A DNA stretch of 64,000 nt from an uncultured delta proteobacterium (GTDB lineage Bacteria; Myxococcota_A; Polyangia; Polyangiales; Polyangiaceae). Below are positions 32 through 22,893 of this stretch, piece after piece (within the stretch, counting starts at the first letter, position 1; the number at the start of each line of letters is the position of its first letter). Made by a program: the position numbers and the translations under genes. The notes beneath the pieces are model-generated. The model saw only the letters and a program-made list of their open reading frames with translations, was not told where the DNA came from and did not search any database. The stretch covers positions 416,001-480,000 of the forward strand of contig CAVQUB010000011.1 in assembly GCA_963716725.1 (NCBI GenBank), written 5' to 3'.

Positions 32-589
32 ATGGCCGCGAGCGCCTCGCCTAGCATGAATCCGGACGAGTCGGTGAACTCGGCGCCTGGTCTCCGCGGT
101 GGAAACGTGATTTCATCTTCGCGCGTGCGTATTCCGAGAGGCGTTTGGACCGTGGTCAAGGAGGTCGCGCGCCACGTCTTGCGCCGGCCGGTGACGGGGA
201 TCGCCGCCGCGGCGCGGACCGCGGACGGACGCTGGCTCTTGATCCGTCGCACGGACACCGGCGAGTGGGCGCTGCCGGGAGGCACACTGGAATGGGGCGA
301 GCGCTTGCGCGACGCCATCGTTCGGGAGCTCGGGGAGGAGGCCGGCGTGGACGTCGTCGACCTCGGGCAGGTCGCAGGTGTGTACTCGGATCCCGATCGA
401 GACTTGCGCTTCCACGCGGTGACCATCGTCGTCCATGCGCTCGTCACCGAACCGTCGCGCCCACCGATGAACCCGATGGAGGTGAGCGAGGTTGCGTTGT
501 TCGAGACCGCCGATCTGCCGCAGTCACTGGCTCACGGCATGACGCGCATGCTCCAGGACGCCGCCGCCGGGGAGCCGACCTGGGAGTGA
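32..589 (+). CDS. NUDIX hydrolase
   Basis: Nudix box GGTLEWGERLRDAIVRELGEEAG, followed by the GVYSDPDRD motif. The true start may be downstream of 32. Confidence 0.9.
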   Translation: MAASASPSMNPDESVNSAPGLRGGNVISSSRVRIPRGVWTVVKEVARHVLRRPVTGIAAAARTADGRWLLIRRTDTGEWALPGGTLEWGERLRDAIVRELGEEAGVDVVDLGQVAGVYSDPDRDLRFHAVTIVVHALVTEPSRPPMNPMEVSEVALFETADLPQSLAHGMTRMLQDAAAGEPTWE

Positions 590-636
590 CCTCGAGCCCC
601 TACCCGCCGCGCTCGACCCGTGGCAGGGTTTCGTCC

Positions 637-1815
637 ATGCCGCTCTGGCGCGCAATTTGGCCGTTGCTCATCCTCCCGCTCGCCGCGGGTTGCGGCCTGT
701 TCAAACAGCTCGAGGTCGACTCGCCTGGCAACTGGGTTCAGAAGCCGAGCAACGTCGCCGTCGCCCTTTCCGTCAGCGACGGCGACACCCCCATCACGGA
801 TCTGACCGAACAGAGCTTCGCGATCTACGAGAACGAGCAGCTCGTCTCCACCGACGACTCCAAGCAGGTGTTGCTCGATCGCGAACTCGCGGCTCACTTC
901 CGAACGCTGCTTCTGGTGGACATGTCGAGCGCCAAAGACGAGGCCACGCGCACTCGCGTCGCGCGCGGCGTTGCGAGTTTCGTCGAAGCAGTCCGCAAGA
1001 CCCAGGCCGTGAGCGTCTACGCCTTCGACGGCTCCGCGGACCTCGCTGCCATCGGAGAGTTCGCAAGAGGCGAAGAGGGCCCAAAAGAGCTGCCGGCGCT
1101 GGCGGGCTACGCGAGCCGTGACCCCTCCCGCAATCTGAACGGCGCGGTGAAGCGCGGCCTCGATGAGCTGGGCGCGCGCCTGATGACCCAGCAGAAGTCG
1201 GTGCGCATCGGCACGCTGGTCGTCGTGACGGCTGGGCCCGACAAGGCCGGTCGTCAGAGCGCCGAGCAGCTCCAGCAAGCGGTCGATGGTTCGCCGTACC
1301 AAATCCTCGTCGTCGCGGTCGGGAACGAAAACGCCTACGACGTCAGCGCCATTTCCAAGTCCGGCACGCTCTGGGCGCCGTCCCTTGCCGGCTTGGGGCC
1401 GACCCTCGCCGATGCGGCCAGCAAGGTCGGGGACCTGATGGAGCGTCACTACCTGCTCTCGTACTGCTCGCCCGCGCGGGCGGGCGTGCGACGCGTTCGC
1501 ATCGAGGTCACGCGCATCGGCACCGAGGGCGACGAACGCAAGGGCAACATCGAGTTCGAGATCGACTCCACCGGCTTCGGTCCCGGCTGTGATTCGTCGA
1601 CGCCTCCGAAAGCGGGAGCTGCCGCGGGCGCAAAAGACGACCCGTCGGGGGGCGACGGCAAGAAGCCCGACGACAAGCCCAACGAAGCGACGGCCGGCGA
1701 CAAGAAGAGCGGCGACAAGAAGAGCGGCGACAAGAAGGGCGACGGCAAGCAGGGCGGCGACGAGTTCGTCCCGCCGCCGAACAAACCCGGCTACGCGCCG
1801 ACCCCGACCAAGTGA
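637..1815 (+). CDS. VWA-domain lipoprotein with Lys/Asp/Gly-rich tail
   Basis: The ATG at 637 gives a signal peptide and lipobox (LAAGC). LLVDMSS is a MIDAS-like motif. GDKKS repeats lie at the C-terminus. The ORF-track extension to 145 overlaps the NUDIX gene and was rejected. Confidence 0.75.
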   Translation: MPLWRAIWPLLILPLAAGCGLFKQLEVDSPGNWVQKPSNVAVALSVSDGDTPITDLTEQSFAIYENEQLVSTDDSKQVLLDRELAAHFRTLLLVDMSSAKDEATRTRVARGVASFVEAVRKTQAVSVYAFDGSADLAAIGEFARGEEGPKELPALAGYASRDPSRNLNGAVKRGLDELGARLMTQQKSVRIGTLVVVTAGPDKAGRQSAEQLQQAVDGSPYQILVVAVGNENAYDVSAISKSGTLWAPSLAGLGPTLADAASKVGDLMERHYLLSYCSPARAGVRRVRIEVTRIGTEGDERKGNIEFEIDSTGFGPGCDSSTPPKAGAAAGAKDDPSGGDGKKPDDKPNEATAGDKKSGDKKSGDKKGDGKQGGDEFVPPPNKPGYAPTPTK

Positions 1816-2180: not shown

Positions 2181-2250
2181 CCCGCGATACGCGCGGACTC
2201 CCCGTTGACCTGGTCGCCATCCCTTGCTCTGCTGCTTCGCGGAGGCTCTG

Positions 2251-3795
2251 GTGCGACGTGCGATCCCTATTCTCGCGACCCTGGTGACGCTCACGGCCGC
2301 GAGCGCTTCGCGCGCGTCGACGGCGCTCGAGTACCCCGACAACGGGGTGGCGCAGTTCTCCCGGGGCGGCGCCTGGCTGGCCACCGCCACCGATCCAATC
2401 GCGGGCTACTACAACCCCGCGGCTCTGGCGACGCAGGCCACGAGCTTCAGCATCGGGCTGAACCTCGCCTTCCAGAACGTCTGCTTCGAACGCAAGGGCC
2501 CGGACGGCACGGACATCGGTCCCAGCAAAGGCCTGACCGATCAGGGCATCACCTACGGGGAGGTCTGCAACTCGAACGCGGGGCATCCGAACCTCATCCC
2601 CAACGTCGCCTTCGTGTGGCGCGCCACCGAGCGCCTCGGGATCGGGCTCACCATCGTTCCGCCGTCGTCCTTTGGTCAGCTCGAGTGGCCCGACCTGGTG
2701 GCCATGCCCGAGAACCACTCGTCGGGCCGAACCGCGCCCACGCCCGCGCCGCAGCGCTACCTCTCGCTCTACACCAAGGGCACGATCCTGTTCCCAACCC
2801 TCTCGGTCGGCTACTCGGTCACCGATCGCTTCCACATCGGAGCCGGGTTCGTGGCCGGCATCGCCCTGCTCGAGTTCCGCTCGATGTCGATGGCAAACGT
2901 CGACTCGACAAACCCCTACGACCAATACACCCAGGACAGTCGCAGCCGCGTCCAAGCCCAGGACCTATTCGTGCCGGGTGTGGTCGCCAGCGCGTTGTTC
3001 GAGGCGACCGACCACCTCGACCTCGCCGCCTGGTATCGCTACAGCGACAAGATCCGCGCGAAGGGCGACCTCGAGGTGACGGCGCAGTATTACGACTCCG
3101 CCGGGCGTCGCAACCCAAAGGCCGAGGTCACCAAGAGCAAGGATCAGAAGGGTGCTGACGCCGCCAAGGTCGTGCTCACCCTGCCCATGGAAGCGCGCAT
3201 CGGCGCTCGCTGGCACATGCCGCTCGCAGCGCCCACCGGCCTCGATGCGGAGCGCTTCCGGAAGGACCGCCACCGCGTACGCGATCCCCTTCGGGACGAT
3301 CTCTACGATCTCGAACTCGATCTGACCTGGGCCAACAACGGCAGCGCCGAGGCCACCGAGATCCGCTTCCCGGAGGGCATCTTCGTGGCGAACCTCGGCA
3401 CCGTTCCGACCAATGCCGATCGCCCGACAGGCTGGCGTGACTCCTTCGGCGCGCGCCTGGGCATGCAGTACAACGCGATCCGAAACCGGATGGGCCTGCG
3501 TACCGGAACCTGGGTCGAGAGCAACGCCACGAAGGAGGAATACCTCTCGGTGACGGGGGTACCGGCGCTCCGCGGCGGGGTCGCGGTCGGCATGGTCCTG
3601 CGCATCCAGGGTGTGGATCTCGAGACCGGCTACCAGCACATCTGGAACGCGGGGCTCGACAACGAGGGCAACGGGAAGCAACGCGCCATCGCCGCGAGCG
3701 GCTCGCCGGACAGCCGCTCGCACCACGCCGTCAACGGCGGGAGCGTGACGCAGCACGCGAACGTATTCTCGCTCGGCGCCGTCGCGCGCTTCTAG
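2251..3795 (+). CDS. FadL/TodX-like outer-membrane transport beta-barrel
   Basis: GGAGG at 2241, then GTG at 2251. Signal peptide, SRGGAWLATATDPIAGYYNPAAL hatch motif and a C-terminal Phe. Confidence 0.8.
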   Translation: MRRAIPILATLVTLTAASASRASTALEYPDNGVAQFSRGGAWLATATDPIAGYYNPAALATQATSFSIGLNLAFQNVCFERKGPDGTDIGPSKGLTDQGITYGEVCNSNAGHPNLIPNVAFVWRATERLGIGLTIVPPSSFGQLEWPDLVAMPENHSSGRTAPTPAPQRYLSLYTKGTILFPTLSVGYSVTDRFHIGAGFVAGIALLEFRSMSMANVDSTNPYDQYTQDSRSRVQAQDLFVPGVVASALFEATDHLDLAAWYRYSDKIRAKGDLEVTAQYYDSAGRRNPKAEVTKSKDQKGADAAKVVLTLPMEARIGARWHMPLAAPTGLDAERFRKDRHRVRDPLRDDLYDLELDLTWANNGSAEATEIRFPEGIFVANLGTVPTNADRPTGWRDSFGARLGMQYNAIRNRMGLRTGTWVESNATKEEYLSVTGVPALRGGVAVGMVLRIQGVDLETGYQHIWNAGLDNEGNGKQRAIAASGSPDSRSHHAVNGGSVTQHANVFSLGAVARF

Positions 3796-3910
3796 TCCGC
3801 GGCCGGTCACCGACCTCGCGGGCAAAGACGCGGGGGACGCGGGGAACCCAGGGAAGATCCTCCTGGTTCGGGCACGCTCTCCTGCCTCAGATCCGCAGGA
3901 AAAGGGCGCG

Positions 3911-3957
3911 AAGCACAAAATAAAACAAGGGCGATCTGGTCACCCAGATCGCCCTTG
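3911..3957 (-). terminator. intrinsic terminator for a minus-strand transcript
   Basis: Perfect 14-bp stem (3926-3939 / 3944-3957) with a loop reading GUGA on the minus strand, followed on minus by TTTTATTTT. Confidence 0.8.
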
Positions 3958-5860
3958 GGAAGTCACCGTTTACCGGTGGTGGGCGGGACACGCCCCGAGC
4001 ATGTTTCAGCTTTTGCTATCACCGGTCTCCACTCCGCCGTTTGCATACGATCGGGGTGGCATCATCGCCTCAATGGGGGCTCCGCAAGACTCAGGCCCGT
4101 CGATTTCGCGGTCGCTTGGCCTGGTGCGGTGACAGGGTTGTTAGCCGCTGTCAGCTTCGGCGAAGAGTATTGTCGGCGCATCGCTCAGTCGGCCGGCTTT
4201 CGCCCACCGGAGCCTCGACGTGAACCGCGTTGTCGCGGTCACGGATGCTGACCCCCCGCGTCTCATCAACTGGAGGAGCCTTCACCAACGCATACCCTGC
4301 CTCTGATGTTCTCTGTCACCGCATGGGCACGGTCAGCAAGACCTCAGGCTCTCACTACCCGCTGGCTCGACCCGGCCGCCACTCGCTCGCGCGAGTACTC
4401 TTCCGAACCTGCATTGACCCTCACGGTCAGAACCGCGCTCGCGCCGAACGGTTTAAGAACAGCGCTGCACACGATCCAGAACACCTATCGTCGTATCTGC
4501 GACGCACGAGGTTTTACCCTCATGCTCAAAACCACCCGCTCAGTTGTTCACTTGAGCTGGTGACTCCGCGTACCCGTTCGCCCATCCGCTTTTCCGCGAC
4601 GCTCCGTCAAGAGCACCTCGGTTCCGGTCGAGCTATGCCGATTGTGACTCGTGCCTTTCGGCAGCCGAGTCCATCAGGCCAGAGATACGTCCGATCGACG
4701 ACTGCAATCCCACATTTCAAAAACGAGCACTCGTTGCTTCGCGTGGTTACCGAGTCGCTTTCCAGGGTTGCCCCTGGTGCGCTGCGATGAGTGAGGCGGT
4801 TCACGCCGCGTTCACTCGCTTCGGGCGGCGCTACCACCAGCGCAGCGAGTATTCTCCCCTCGCCGCTCCGTTGGAGCTCCGACTCCTCTGACGCTCCCGT
4901 CACCACCCAGACGTCACCGGCTCATTAGGCCAGCTTCACCCAGGCGACCGAGATCACTTCCACTGCCGCGATGCGTGAATTGCGACAGCTTTCGTGACCC
5001 GGAGCACCTTCCTCTGGCTAGGAGCCCTTCTCGGGCTCTTTGTTGGTCCCCGCGCTCGGCAGTGCCGAACGTCGACTCCAACTCACACCGTCCCTTCGCC
5101 CGCGGTGGAGATCATCCACCCTGAGCTAGGCCCCGTCCGCTCACCTCAGCCACAACCGAGGCTCGCCTCTCGAGCCAGACGCCGCTCACCAGATTCTGCA
5201 ACATTTCAACGCGAAACCCGAGCACACCAACGAACGACGTTTCCTCACCCGACGAGCCGCTTTCGCACCCTTCGTTGCCCGACACCGACCGAAGTCGACC
5301 CGAGCTGTGAGCAGCGCAGCACCGGAGAGCCTTTCTCTCGAACGACCCTCTGGCTGGCACCCCGAAGGCGCCTGCCGCACCGGCCGAGACACGGGGAGTT
5401 GGCTATGCGTGCTGCGACGCAGAGGCCCACTCAGCCACGTCTCGAACACCCCGCTGTCGTTGACTCACCGCTGGTCGAGCCTGAAGAGGACTGGAGCAGT
5501 CAGCTGGCCAACCGAGGCCTCCAATCTCACCGCCCGCGCGAACGGGTGGGGTGGTCCTGAAAGCCGGGGTGCCTTCGAATCTCGAGAAAGCCAAGACAGA
5601 GGCGCTACTCCGTCTGGCCGGGATGCCCCAATTTCCGAAGAATAGCTGGCCACGCGAGGTGGGCAGCTTGGGGTCACCCTCACGCCTTTTTCACCAGTCG
5701 TCTCGGTAGGCCTTTGACGGGTCCACTCGAGGCGACGGGCGGCGGCGTCCATCCACAGGCAGGCTTGCGACCCGCACGGCAGACAGTGCGCCACGGCGCT
5801 TCTGAAATTCTCTACGAACCGGTCGTTCGCCGGCAGATGTGCCGCGAACTTCCAAGGACC
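3911..5860 (-). ncRNA. putative very large structured non-coding RNA (or tandem RNAs), family unknown
   Basis: No credible ORF. Many hairpins with minus-strand GNRA/UUCG loops, nested helices, a repeated motif and a 3' terminator. The 5' boundary is a guess. Confidence 0.55.
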
Positions 5861-5918
5861 ATTAATGCTTCAGGTCGACTCTCTAAGCAACAAGAAAATC
5901 AGCGGAGATGCGATTTTA

Positions 5919-5950
5919 TTATCCACACAGTCAGTCACAGGTAATCCACA
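5919..5950 (+). promoter_or_regulatory. two DnaA boxes
   Basis: TTATCCACA at 5919-5927 (consensus) and TAATCCACA at 5942-5950 (one mismatch), inside an AT-richer patch. Confidence 0.5.
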
Positions 5951-6294
5951 GGCCCCCTTGCGGGGCCGAGCAGCATCTGATCGACGGCAGCTAACCGTTC
6001 GTATTCACGAAGTTATCCGGAGAGCAACGAGCTGGAAGCCCGCCCGGCGCGCACAAGAACATGCGTTGACTACTTCATTTGAATACCGATGCTATTCTCG
6101 TTTGAAATCCCGGGTCTCTTCTTCGACTGAAAGAGGGGGTAGGTGAATCCACTACCCAAGCGCCGCCCTCGGCCCGACGCCCCTTCGCGGGGCGCGGTCG
6201 CTCAGTCCGAGATCCCGGCGCACCCCAACCCACTTTGGTGACCGAGAGGCCGCGATTCGGTGGTACACCGCTGTTTCCGCGAGGAGGCTCCCTG

Positions 6295-6516
6295 GTGCCG
6301 CTGAACGTCGACACGCTGAAATCCGAGCGCGATAAGCTCAAAGAAGGTCTCCGCGAAATCGAAGCCGATCAGCGCAAGCTCGAGGCGGAGATCAAGGCGC
6401 TGCGCCAGCGCGAGCTCCAAGCCAAACGTGAGATCGAGGCGCTCAACGTGCTGCTCGAAATCCACGACGCCCGCGAGCCGAGCAAGAAGGCCCCGCCCAA
6501 GAAGCCGGAGGAGTGA
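6295..6516 (+). CDS. small coiled-coil protein
   Basis: GAGGAGG at 6281-6287, then GTG at 6295. Heptad-like charged helix LKSERDKLKEGLREIEADQRKLEAEIKAL. Confidence 0.75.
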   Translation: MPLNVDTLKSERDKLKEGLREIEADQRKLEAEIKALRQRELQAKREIEALNVLLEIHDAREPSKKAPPKKPEE

Positions 6517-8200
6517 CGCCCGAGCTCACTCGGGCGCTGGCAGCGCGCGGCAAGTGGCCCTCGGTGATCCGAATCGAACCGAGGCGCGAGGCGGAACCGC
6601 CGGGAGCGAAGCTGTCGACGAGCGGAGCGAGCCCTTCGACGCCCAGCGCAGCCGGCGGCTGGAGCGCCGTCCCCGCCGCCGCCAGCGACTCGACGTGGAG
6701 CGTCTGCGTCGGAAACGCGAAGCGAACCCCGAGGCTCTCGGCCAAGCGCAGGACTTCGAGCAAGATGTCGTGTCGGGTGACCAGCTCGTCGGACCATTCC
6801 GCAGCCTCGACGTAGCAGTGAAGTGTGACGTCGAGGGACGAGTTGGCGAGCCGACTCAGGTGCACCTCGAACTTGTCTTTGCGGGTCCGCTCCGACGCCC
6901 AGACGATAGCGCGGATCCCCTCGACAAAGGCCTCGATGCGCTCGACCGGGGTGTCGTAGGTCACGGAAAAAGTCTCCAGTATTCGGCGGTGTCGCCGCGC
7001 GCCCATGTTCTCGATCTTCGCCTCCGCCAGCCGGGCGTTGGGCAAGGTGACCAACGAGTCACCCAGAGTCCGGATGCGCGACGAGCGGAAGCCCACCTCT
7101 TCCACACGCCCCTCGACGTCCTCGACCTTCACGAGGTCGCCAATGCGAAAGGGTCGGTCGATGAAGATCATGACGCTCGCGAAGAAGTTCGCGATGGTGT
7201 CCTTGGCGGCCAACGCCATGGCGAGACCACCAATCCCAAGCCCCGCCAACAGCGAGCCAACGTCCACGTTCAGGTTCTGGAGCAGGACCAGCACCCCGAC
7301 GATAACCAAGACGATCTTCATTGAAGTGCGCACCAGCGGCACCATCTGGTCGTCGAGCCCCGATCCGGTCTGCTCGGCGCGCGTCGCCAGGTGTGCAGCC
7401 AACACGTCCACGAGTCGGTAGAGCGCGAGCACCAAGGCGACGATCACGCTGGCACGCAGCGCCGTCGAGAGCCCGAGTGCCACACCGAGCGGCAGCCCGA
7501 GCTGGGGATACGCGAGCCGCAACGTCAGCACTGCGAAGAGCATCGCACCGGGAGTCGCGAAAACCTTCACCAACTCTGCCGTCAGCCGCGCCCCTCGCCG
7601 CTCGGCGAAACCCGCCAGCCGGTGCTTCAGCACGAAGCGAATCAGCTGCCTGAGCACCAGCGCGACCAGCACGATCAGGGCCAAAGCCAGCCCCTGCCAG
7701 AGCTCCATGCCGAGCATTCGACCCCGGAGCCAGGGCGGCAAACGGCTCACGATGCCGTGCTTGCCCATCAGCAGTGAGTCTTCGTAGATCTCGTCTATGG
7801 CATCGAGGCTTGCCCGCGACCACCGCCACATGCCGTCGGCTTGCCTTTCAACCAAGATGTTGGGGAACGCCCCATGGGGCGCGATGGACGCTCGCCGCGT
7901 GTCGGGGTTCACCCAGCCCGGCTCGTCGCTAAAACGCGCGGTGTCGATCTTCAACGCGCGCGCTGCGTAGACGGTCTTGACGCGCTGCGCGCTCTCGCGG
8001 AGCTCGCTGGTCGAGCGTCCGGCGCGATCGAGACAGCGTGTGGCCTTGGCGGGGTTGTGGTGTTCCTCCGACAGCCAGCCGAACAACGAATCCACCGCGT
8101 CACGCGGAGACTTGCAGCTGGCTGGGGGCTCGGCAGACACGCTGAGCGGCGCAAGGACGGCTAGCAAAAACAGGACGAGACAATGGTGGATATGACGCAC
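6443..8200 (-). CDS. mscS: small-conductance mechanosensitive channel with periplasmic N-terminal domain
   Basis: LLAGLGIGGLAMALAAKDTIANFF, DRPFRIGD, VEEVGFRSSRIRT and FAFPTQT motifs, plus a signal peptide. Confidence 0.92.
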   Translation of the reverse strand: MRHIHHCLVLFLLAVLAPLSVSAEPPASCKSPRDAVDSLFGWLSEEHHNPAKATRCLDRAGRSTSELRESAQRVKTVYAARALKIDTARFSDEPGWVNPDTRRASIAPHGAFPNILVERQADGMWRWSRASLDAIDEIYEDSLLMGKHGIVSRLPPWLRGRMLGMELWQGLALALIVLVALVLRQLIRFVLKHRLAGFAERRGARLTAELVKVFATPGAMLFAVLTLRLAYPQLGLPLGVALGLSTALRASVIVALVLALYRLVDVLAAHLATRAEQTGSGLDDQMVPLVRTSMKIVLVIVGVLVLLQNLNVDVGSLLAGLGIGGLAMALAAKDTIANFFASVMIFIDRPFRIGDLVKVEDVEGRVEEVGFRSSRIRTLGDSLVTLPNARLAEAKIENMGARRHRRILETFSVTYDTPVERIEAFVEGIRAIVWASERTRKDKFEVHLSRLANSSLDVTLHCYVEAAEWSDELVTRHDILLEVLRLAESLGVRFAFPTQTLHVESLAAAGTALQPPAALGVEGLAPLVDSFAPGGSASRLGSIRITEGHLPRAASARVSSGVTPPASWAGPSCSARGRRGFRAAR

Positions 8201-22817: not shown

Positions 22818-22893
<76 letters not shown>

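Follow-up and report, generated by a model that had tools for sequence, protein, structure and literature searches.

Results

The locus and the limits of the gene

In the window analysed, a 64,000-nucleotide (nt) stretch of a contig from an uncultured member of the Polyangiaceae, the genes for a FadL/TodX-like outer-membrane protein and an MscS-like channel flank an intergenic region of ~2.6 kb devoid of any credible open reading frame (ORF), within which a first-pass annotation had placed, at positions 3911-5860 of the minus strand, a candidate gene for a very large structured RNA. Structure, conservation and contigs assembled from RNA libraries together support that proposal: the best explanation, in which as a whole we have high confidence, is that the minus strand from ~5844 to ~3958, with the terminator at 3957-3926 and a U-tract extending to 3917, constitutes a single-copy gene for a non-coding RNA of ~1.9 kb, and that this represents a new structured RNA gene of ~1.8-1.9 kb in an uncultured Polyangiaceae sub-lineage. 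The features that define the locus are as follows.

2224-3795, plus strand: FadL/TodX-like outer-membrane gene, left neighbour of the RNA gene
3917..3925, minus strand: U-tract TTTTATTTT, directly after the terminator hairpin
3926..3957, minus strand: intrinsic terminator hairpin with a 14-bp stem and a GUGA loop, from a terminator scan
3958..5844, minus strand: RNA body of ~1,885 nt, assembled from RNA libraries, with 593 pairs in 94 helices
C5844/G5843/G5842, minus strand: 5' end of the RNA, where contigs end; the assembled 3' end lies near 3958-3962
6443-8200, minus strand: MscS-like channel gene, the nearest upstream gene on this strand, ending at 6443

The claim of a 14-bp terminator with its T-tract facing the minus strand was borne out by a hairpin at 3957..3926, followed by TTTTATTTT, that was kept with compensatory changes in 16/16 aligned homologs, each of which also retained a T-run after it. 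In the comparative structure described below the same hairpin corresponds to helix 94, in which both sides had changed in 6 of the 14 pairs while 99.1% of cells remained paired. Only one promoter block and one terminator were found at the RNA gene and, as had been stated, no minus-strand gene ends nearby, the MscS-like gene being the closest upstream. The limits first proposed required slight adjustment, in that the 5' end of the RNA lies at 5842-5844 and the conserved promoter block continues to 5953.

Coding potential

ORFs on both strands of 3911-5860 were confirmed to be unremarkable, none exceeding 188 amino acids (aa) and the two longest (188 and 186 aa) being without a Pfam match, in agreement with the earlier view that the stretch holds no credible gene. 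The lower guanine plus cytosine (GC) content attributed to it was likewise recovered (0.59-0.67, compared with 0.64-0.72 in the gene on the left); the plus strand is C-rich, with a GC skew down to -0.27, and the minus-strand RNA is therefore G-rich.

Variable sites were distributed almost evenly over the three codon positions of the RNA stretch (219/213/226), and the period-3 spectral power amounted to 0.87 times the median, whereas the FadL-like gene of the same genomes, serving as a control, gave 149/101/279 and a period-3 power of 126 times. No ORF was positionally conserved among the homologs, the recurrent best candidate varying in length modulo 3 and carrying stops in many members; a small conserved ORF starting from the invariant AUG/GUG in UCUUUGAAAUGUGG was rejected on the same two grounds. 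The stretch thus displayed neither a conserved ORF nor period-3 substitutions, and the check on codon-like conservation that had been recommended returned none.

Searches against known RNA families

Rfam 15, the 4,227 models of which include OLE, GOLLD, ROOL, HEARO, raiA, the ribosomal RNAs (rRNAs), RNase P, transfer-messenger RNA (tmRNA), 6S and group I and II introns, yielded at the gathering score only a transfer RNA (tRNA), at 22818-22890, in the whole window and nothing at the RNA gene. Relaxing the threshold to E<=10 produced a single chance match across 3600-6500, located on the terminator hairpin (17.7 bits against a gathering score of 43), and three unrelated sub-threshold matches (15-23 bits) in nine diverse homologs. 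The RNA accordingly stands outside the known families, as had been supposed from its sequence. GOLLD, OLE and their kin each proved structurally unprecedented.

Group II introns are marked by a domain V/VI core and usually by a reverse-transcriptase ORF; here there was no intron model match at E<=10, no Pfam-matching ORF and no joint in the contigs. Full-text literature searches returned no description of such an RNA, though most subscription journals fell outside them, so that a prior description is possible.

Conservation and distribution

When 40 relatives were searched with BLAST, a full-length copy with sharp edges was present in 6/6 genomes of the same genus at 72-88% identity, so that the conservation in relatives to be checked for proved strong, and one copy was present in the window's own genome. 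Conservation ceased abruptly at window ~5953 and ~3916, the adjoining intergenic DNA being unalignable. A profile constructed from seven copies extended the range to another genus, where a homolog both full-length and collinear was detected (E 5e-70).

An exact 20-21-nt motif from the 5' region, sought in 185,579 species genomes, retrieved 19 loci, all in metagenome-assembled genomes (MAGs) labelled Polyangiaceae, Myxococcales or delta-proteobacterium. By nhmmer, 14 of these were full-length matches, four matched in the 5' part only and one (L023) gave no hit; the five that were not full-length were collinear among themselves or shared the 3' end and terminator, and are therefore regarded as more distant members of 1.7-2.1 kb. 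Removal of duplicates left 16 sequences from at least five clades, with 50-60% identity between clades and RNA lengths of 1,807-1,937 nt. Overall, the full-length homologs of uncultured Polyangiaceae measure 1.8-1.9 kb, show 53-89% identity and occupy the same position on the chromosome.

A covariance model of the central domain found exactly one match per genome in 27/151 sampled genomes of the family (17/89 genera). A class-wide sample gave matches in 4/151 genomes, comprising the window's own, two of the same family and one of a sister family, the last of these weak (E 1.5e-5). Since the model misses at least one known distant member (G009), these distribution figures are floors. No match was found in the 50,697 phage records, 72,556 plasmids or viral contigs searched. 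The RNA gene is a single-copy chromosomal gene on the minus strand and is vertically inherited.

Secondary structure and covariation

RNAalifold applied to eight sequences returned -1442 for the sense strand, -1095 for the antisense strand and -1064 to -1094 for five column shuffles; the corresponding numbers of pairs changed on both sides were 233, 187 and 92-121. G-U cells numbered 978 in the sense and 330 in the antisense orientation, which sets the strand as minus.

The consensus structure of 16 sequences (alignment A1, 2,201 columns) comprises 593 pairs in 94 helices. Paired cells amounted to 88.6%, compared with 78.1±0.2 in shuffled alignments (0/500 reaching the observed value) and 39-43% when partners were slid, and 338 pairs had changed on both sides, compared with 208.5±7.7 shuffled (again 0/500), although figures obtained in this way are flattered because the structure was derived from the alignment on which the pairs were counted. 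The covariation expected in relatives was nonetheless strong. A held-out test was conducted on 15 sequences outside the prediction, drawn from a metagenome scan with an internal motif that gave at least 115 loci, with 40 true homologs among the matches listed: 76-96% of predicted pairs were canonical, compared with 35-47% when slid, and 599 of the 795 pairs in which both partners differed from those of the nearest relative stayed canonical, a count for which there was no control.

Equivalent counts were made for the central domain using a covariance model of its 161 nt aligned to 56 matches, 53 of them distinct, the alignment being one fitted to the model. Here 93.2% of cells were paired, compared with 80.0±0.5 shuffled, and 31 of 46 pairs had changed on both sides, compared with 20.8±1.8 shuffled, 0/500 shuffles reaching either value.

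Three large domains are predicted, each closed by a long-range helix (columns 10-29/709-727, 728-744/1310-1328 and 1341-1351/2028-2036) in which, respectively, 8, 7 and 5 pairs had changed on both sides; further sub-domains, a 3' tail and the terminator make up the remainder of the fold. A predicted closing helix 1, formed by columns 1-8 (GGCACAUC) with columns 2043-2051 (GAUGAUGCC), brings the 5' end together with a site that precedes the 3' end by ~140 nt. Conserved structure with compensatory changes beyond those of the controls, as characterises a structured non-coding RNA gene, was thus found, and this comparative evidence shows that the RNA folds into a multi-domain structure of ~590 base pairs, the domains being closed by long-range helices.

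Hairpins, loops and internal motifs

The tetraloop hairpins that the first-pass annotation had named on the minus strand all exist, and each falls in helices of the comparative structure.

GCAA loop: helix 57, 5 pairs changed on both sides
GAAA loop: helices 65/66, 4+3 pairs changed on both sides
GCGA loop: helix 76, 3 pairs changed on both sides
UUCG loop: helix 32, 3 pairs changed on both sides
Second UUCG loop: helix 28, no pairs changed on both sides

A count of hairpins combining a GNRA or UNCG tetraloop with a stem of at least 4 bp gave seven on the minus strand and one on the plus strand, and dinucleotide shuffles of the minus strand contained 2.87±1.60, with 5/300 reaching seven. The excess of tetraloop hairpins is only modest on its own; it is the comparative evidence that is decisive. 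Besides the many GNRA and UUCG loops there are larger, near-invariant ones (CGUCAA, UCGC, CGUGAA and CGCGAA), and many of the invariant nucleotides lie in junctions and loops rather than in helices.

The CGCGAA loop (A1 columns 1996-2001, window ~4105-4110) retained the palindrome CGCG in 30/31 sequences and is a candidate for a symmetric loop-loop contact, palindromes being without covariation between them. A junction motif, GGUGAC...CAGAGG, has two copies, both situated where a domain closes on its 3' side; it may represent a tertiary or protein-binding module used more than once, or the vestige of an ancient duplication.

A1 columns ~1088-1108 (window ~4890-4910), minus strand: one copy of GGUGAC...CAGAGG
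A1 columns ~1770-1793 (window ~4300-4325), minus strand: the other copy

No long internal repeats were found in the RNA, the only repeats being of 14-28 nt.

Transcript evidence

A run index held 20 rows recorded as RNA, from nine studies of wastewater, sludge and other sources, that contain the stretch or part of it, and in five of these at least half of the words of the stretch were present, rows with small shares being given no weight as regards habitat. Contigs assembled from RNA libraries of four studies (four runs, one per study) mapped on the RNA gene: X1 (1,885 nt) covered 3958-5842 and X5 (1,813 nt) covered 3994-5805, the others being shorter pieces from related strains. Loose ends in X6, which we take to be Illumina adapter, abutted 3962 and 5843. 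In RNA libraries the RNA is represented by one contig as long as the molecule itself. Contig depths (16 to ~1,100) cannot rank expression, and the flanking genes at 2224-3795 and 6443-8200, which had no cover in the four contig runs, were counted neither for nor against.

In the Joint Genome Institute (JGI) collection, which does not state whether its whole contigs derive from RNA, 15 of the 16 long matches among the matches listed were whole contigs of 1,561-1,889 nt consisting of the RNA alone. Among these same 15 listed contigs, 12 began within 12 columns of the 5' end, 7 began at the same base with (C)GGCACAT or GGTACAT, and the ends of 12 fell at the base of the terminator stem, in columns 2149-2166. 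Since transcripts would give contig ends of this kind and genomic contigs would not, the mature 5' end is placed at 5842-5844.

A discrete transcript with its own ends is thereby indicated, from contigs that do not show strand, level or end chemistry. The minus-strand transcript ending near 3915 that had been anticipated was recovered in part: RNA-library contigs have their ends at 5842 and 3958, in agreement with the whole contigs of the JGI collection. Assembly thus reaches the terminator stem or a point slightly short of it (~3958) on the 3' side, and not 3915, for which trimming of the hairpin and poor cover are both possible causes.

The upstream block

The sequence conserved upstream of the RNA (5845-5953) contains four elements read on the minus strand.

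5845..5853, minus strand: conserved GGAAGTTCG, immediately preceding the mature 5' end
5861..5890, minus strand: candidate sigma-70-like promoter read from the sequence, TTGCTT (5890..5885), 18 nt, ATTAAT (5866..5861)
5919..5927, minus strand: perfect DnaA-box 9-mer, TTATCCACA on the plus strand and TGTGGATAA in the RNA sense, with its start 84 nt ahead of the RNA
5942..5950, minus strand: second DnaA-box-like 9-mer with one mismatch, TAATCCACA on the plus strand, at the upstream edge of the conserved block

The first of these, GGAAGTTCG, was invariant in the 16 aligned genomic members and forms part of the 20-21-nt motif that retrieved the 19 loci; it may be a processing site, a trimmed leader or an unusual promoter element. 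Alignment of the upstream regions of 21 members placed TTGC/TTGA ~18 nt before CATAAn/ATTAAT, an arrangement that resembles a sigma-70 promoter and from which transcription would start ~10 nt before the 5' end that was observed. With the sigma-70-like -10 element 17-22 nt upstream of it, that end is too distant to be a normal start, which suggests a short trimmed leader: some 10 nt would probably be removed to leave the sharp 5' end at CGGCACAU. Sigma-54 and extracytoplasmic function (ECF) promoter readings of GGAAGTTCGCGGCAC were rejected, the spacing, as judged by eye, not fitting the consensus.

The 9-mer TGTGGATAA, the reverse complement of the DnaA box, occurs in perfect form in only seven copies in the 7.9-Mb genome, that at 5919..5927 among them. 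A 9-mer within one mismatch of it was present upstream of the RNA in 21/21 genomic members, always in the same orientation, and started at -82 to -86 in 19/21. Many members carry a second such copy 12 or 23 nt further upstream, the distance being 12 nt in other clades, and it is with the second 9-mer (5942..5950) that genus-wide conservation begins. A tandem pair of DnaA-box-like 9-mers 12 nt apart (CTGnGGAnAAcCTGTGGAnAA) was common in the upstream regions of L011 and L014-L031; these 9-mers fall beyond the limits first proposed for the RNA. Transcription would on this basis proceed from a sigma-70-like promoter carrying one or two DnaA boxes 85-107 nt upstream and, with DnaA boxes at the promoter, synthesis of the RNA would probably be coupled to DnaA and through it to the state of replication or growth.

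Upstream of the RNA lies an AT-richer stretch (GC 0.51 at 5851-6150). The loci oriC, datA and DARS are recognised by a cluster of DnaA boxes, an unwinding element, a switch in GC skew and/or an adjoining dnaA gene; the present site has only one or two boxes. A replication origin was rejected, dnaA being on contig C5 and not on the contig that carries the RNA gene (C11), and the cumulative GC skew being without a turn at the site.

Neighbouring genes

The gene order NUDIX, 556-aa protein, FadL-like, RNA, MscS-like, 421-aa protein, SH3-EEP was kept in 8/8 other genomes, in some of which 3 kb of additional sequence is inserted to one side of the RNA, and no reverse transcriptase, transposase or integrase adjoins the RNA gene. 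The non-mobile chromosomal context ascribed to the RNA at the outset was thus upheld, by a single-copy syntenic site as well as by the lack of any phage, plasmid or viral match. In two RNA-negative relatives, L167 (G008) and L168 (G125), the NUDIX, 556-aa and SH3-EEP genes occur in the same order, and between these outer flanking genes there is no FadL-like, RNA, MscS-like or 421-aa gene; the four-gene block may have been gained or lost together.

A gene of the REC-EAL type (response-regulator-EAL, of the cyclic di-GMP phosphodiesterase type) was observed divergent from the RNA promoter in four genomes of other clades.

L044:10374-11804: REC-EAL gene
L046:11095-12429: REC-EAL gene
L045:6325-7605: REC-EAL gene
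L049:6531-8087: REC-EAL gene

It is absent at the RNA promoter in the window's genus and, standing beside the promoter in some clades only, was rejected as a partner of the RNA.

Three further observations concern the surroundings of the RNA gene. Matches to the 556-aa neighbour (window 145-1815) run across one to six in-frame TGA codons in a number of family genomes, for example G157, G049, G047 and G015, for which frame errors, overlapping frames or some other cause may be responsible. In G043 (C4:1714314-1715843) the FadL-like gene adjoining the RNA is split into four collinear pieces, assembly frameshifts or a pseudogene being possible. The sole Rfam or ARAGORN match in the 64-kb window is a tRNA-Arg (CCT) at 22818-22893, and the tRNA nearest to the RNA gene is 17 kb away.

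Discussion

Weight of the evidence and alternative explanations

Several of the results tell against the explanation put forward here. The RNA-library runs consist entirely of contigs, which cannot show start, end, strand or level, and with the transcript known from contigs only, it can be called abundant and processed only presumptively. Apart from the shared origin of structure and pair counts already mentioned, an energy-free covariation scan for runs of at least 4 pairs found 27 antiparallel and 26 in the parallel control, with runs of at least 7 covarying pairs numbering 4 antiparallel and 0 parallel, and the 5'-3' closing helix 1 is invariant and so unsupported by covariation. A consensus promoter scan called 0 sigma-70-like sites upstream of the RNA gene, and binding of DnaA at the 9-mers is proposed from their likeness to the box consensus. 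All of the carriers named by the motif scan are uncultured MAGs. Comparison of neighbourhoods across the family genomes revealed no conserved neighbour that tracks the RNA: of 151 genomes, 79 encode the 556-aa neighbour, 64 the 421-aa neighbour and 27 the RNA, and with so much wider a spread the two proteins are not specific partners.

Since GC-rich DNA yields many ORFs of 60-190 aa in the stretch, a protein-coding gene, a decayed pseudogene, or a gene employing another genetic code or bearing frameshifts might be proposed, but we find any of these hardly credible in view of substitutions that lack the 3-periodicity so strong in the flanking gene, of the failure of any ORF to be kept across clades, the best candidate varying in length modulo 3, and of longest ORFs without a Pfam match; from a pseudogene, moreover, sharp edges, a length of 1,807-1,937 nt and compensated pairs across genera are not expected. 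The DnaA-box-like 9-mers conserved in 21/21 members and the AT-richer stretch at 5851-6150 might instead be taken as signs of a DnaA-binding locus acting at the level of DNA, in the manner of oriC, datA or DARS, or of some other chromosomal site, with the transcript incidental. This is very improbable: no more than one or two boxes are present, none of them within the 1.9-kb body, the dnaA gene belongs to a different contig, the cumulative GC skew does not turn at the RNA gene, and selection is on the pairing of the RNA, whereas a DNA site would display neither the tolerance of G-U pairs on one strand only (978 versus 330 cells) nor the compensatory changes. An equally slight likelihood attaches to an RNA of mobile-element or phage origin too diverged to score, whether GOLLD/ROOL-like, a group II intron or a guide RNA associated with an insertion sequence (IS). 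Other very large bacterial non-coding RNAs, GOLLD and ROOL, are indeed encoded by phages and prophages, according to the available text of PMC12286853; the present gene, by contrast, is single-copy and syntenic between housekeeping-type genes in all clades checked, has no match in the 50,697 phage records, the 72,556 plasmids or the viral contigs, has no reverse transcriptase, transposase or integrase alongside and its nearest tRNA 17 kb away, and lacks an intron-domain match even at E<=10.

Rather less remote, but still quite unlikely, is the view that several smaller RNAs lie in tandem, a possibility that the first-pass annotation had also entertained, or that a precursor is cut into functional pieces. 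Contigs cannot tell one cellular molecule from fragments, the pieces of fragmented rRNAs can stay base-paired, and two of the domain closures share GGUGAC...CAGAGG; yet covarying long-range helices (8, 7 and 5 both-side pairs) tie distant parts of the RNA together, single contigs span its full length in several assemblies, no internal repeat exceeds 28 nt, and there is one promoter block and one terminator only, so that a single long RNA is favoured over the tandem. A different kind of objection accepts the single RNA and disputes its mode of action, envisaging in place of a passive scaffold either a ribozyme of large size or a decoy for some abundant protein, which it would titrate in the way that 6S RNA titrates RNA polymerase. 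Invariant nucleotides in junctions and loops are typical of catalytic cores and specific binding sites, and here many of them are placed in just that way and not in helices. The objection is nonetheless an unlikely one, for no substrate, cleavage junction or partner is indicated, the RNA-library contigs contain no joints, and the size is far above that of known decoys; taken singly, ribozyme and protein decoy are each doubtful as mechanistic alternatives.

Possible mode of action and significance

It is tentatively suggested that the RNA works by virtue of its three-dimensional fold, providing a ribonucleoprotein or an RNA-only assembly with its core or scaffold, a proposal prompted by its size, by the many nucleotides kept invariant in junctions and loops, and by how readily it can be assembled from RNA libraries. 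The mature RNA would be stable and plentiful, tertiary contacts or contacts with partners would be made at those invariant nucleotides, and a scaffolding role would be analogous to those of OLE, ROOL and GOLLD as portrayed in the available text of PMC12286853 and PMC9723947. In broader terms we lean towards regarding the RNA as the first of a new class of giant RNAs in bacteria, a defined multi-domain particle forming the core of an RNA machine, be that a ribonucleoprotein, an RNA-only assembly or a ribozyme, the synthesis of which would be wired to DnaA in uncultured myxobacteria dwelling in wastewater and soil.

An RNA of ~1.9 kb with ~590 conserved base pairs, comparable in size to 16S rRNA and about twice the size of GOLLD as far as the latter is described in the available text, would reset the upper size limit for a structured bacterial RNA other than rRNA. 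That such a molecule should possess dozens of invariant junction nucleotides, be readily assembled from environmental RNA and be vertically inherited in a bacterial family implies a cellular function that these myxobacteria have entrusted to a very large RNA. The alignment, the structure and the ends make that function testable, and the conserved DnaA boxes provide a first handle on regulation.

Comparison with known systems

The largest structured bacterial RNAs on record besides rRNA are under ~1 kb. As described in the accessible part of PMC12286853, GOLLD is the largest of three classes, with many members of >800 nt; phages and prophages carry the genes for GOLLD and ROOL, in many cases close to tRNA islands; and GOLLD, ROOL and OLE undergo homo-oligomeric RNA assembly, GOLLD and ROOL as RNA-only nanocages. 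OLE, as described in the accessible part of PMC9723947, is an RNA of ~600 nt from Gram-positive extremophiles and anaerobes that has Oap protein partners and is part of a ribonucleoprotein complex. At 1,807-1,937 nt the present RNA is longer than OLE, ROOL and GOLLD, as had been claimed for it.

Like GOLLD and ROOL, it is a very large, intricately folded bacterial non-coding RNA recognised by covariation and rich in hairpins, the conserved loops of which could make tertiary or intermolecular contacts. It differs from both, as far as they are described in the available text, in matching no model, in being about twice the size, and in occupying a syntenic single-copy chromosomal site (8/8 other genomes) that is without a phage, plasmid or viral match and 17 kb from the nearest tRNA. 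With OLE it shares a chromosomal, structured and lineage-restricted nature, but within the same limits of description it is set apart by its ~1,900 nt, its occurrence in Polyangiaceae MAGs and the lack of a model match. No Oap-like partner gene adjoins the RNA, a result obtained without a search aimed at Oap homologs.

The 16S and 23S rRNAs are of a comparable size class (1.9 kb), are similarly built of several domains each closed by a long-range helix, and also turn up in RNA libraries, but the present RNA matches no rRNA model, is single-copy, lies outside any rRNA operon and has its own terminator. Between clades it is 53-60% identical, compared with 64-68% for the DNA of the FadL-like gene, a similar pace of change, whereas rRNA evolves far more slowly; and it is present in only 27/151 genomes of one family, that number being a floor. 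Like RNase P RNA, tmRNA and 6S RNA, it is the product of an independent gene with its own promoter and terminator, with probably processed ends and paired 5' and 3' regions, but it is 4-10 times larger than these, is without a model match and is confined to part of one family. The RNA is assigned to a new family, within a broad category, that of the large bacterial RNA of unknown function, which already exists.

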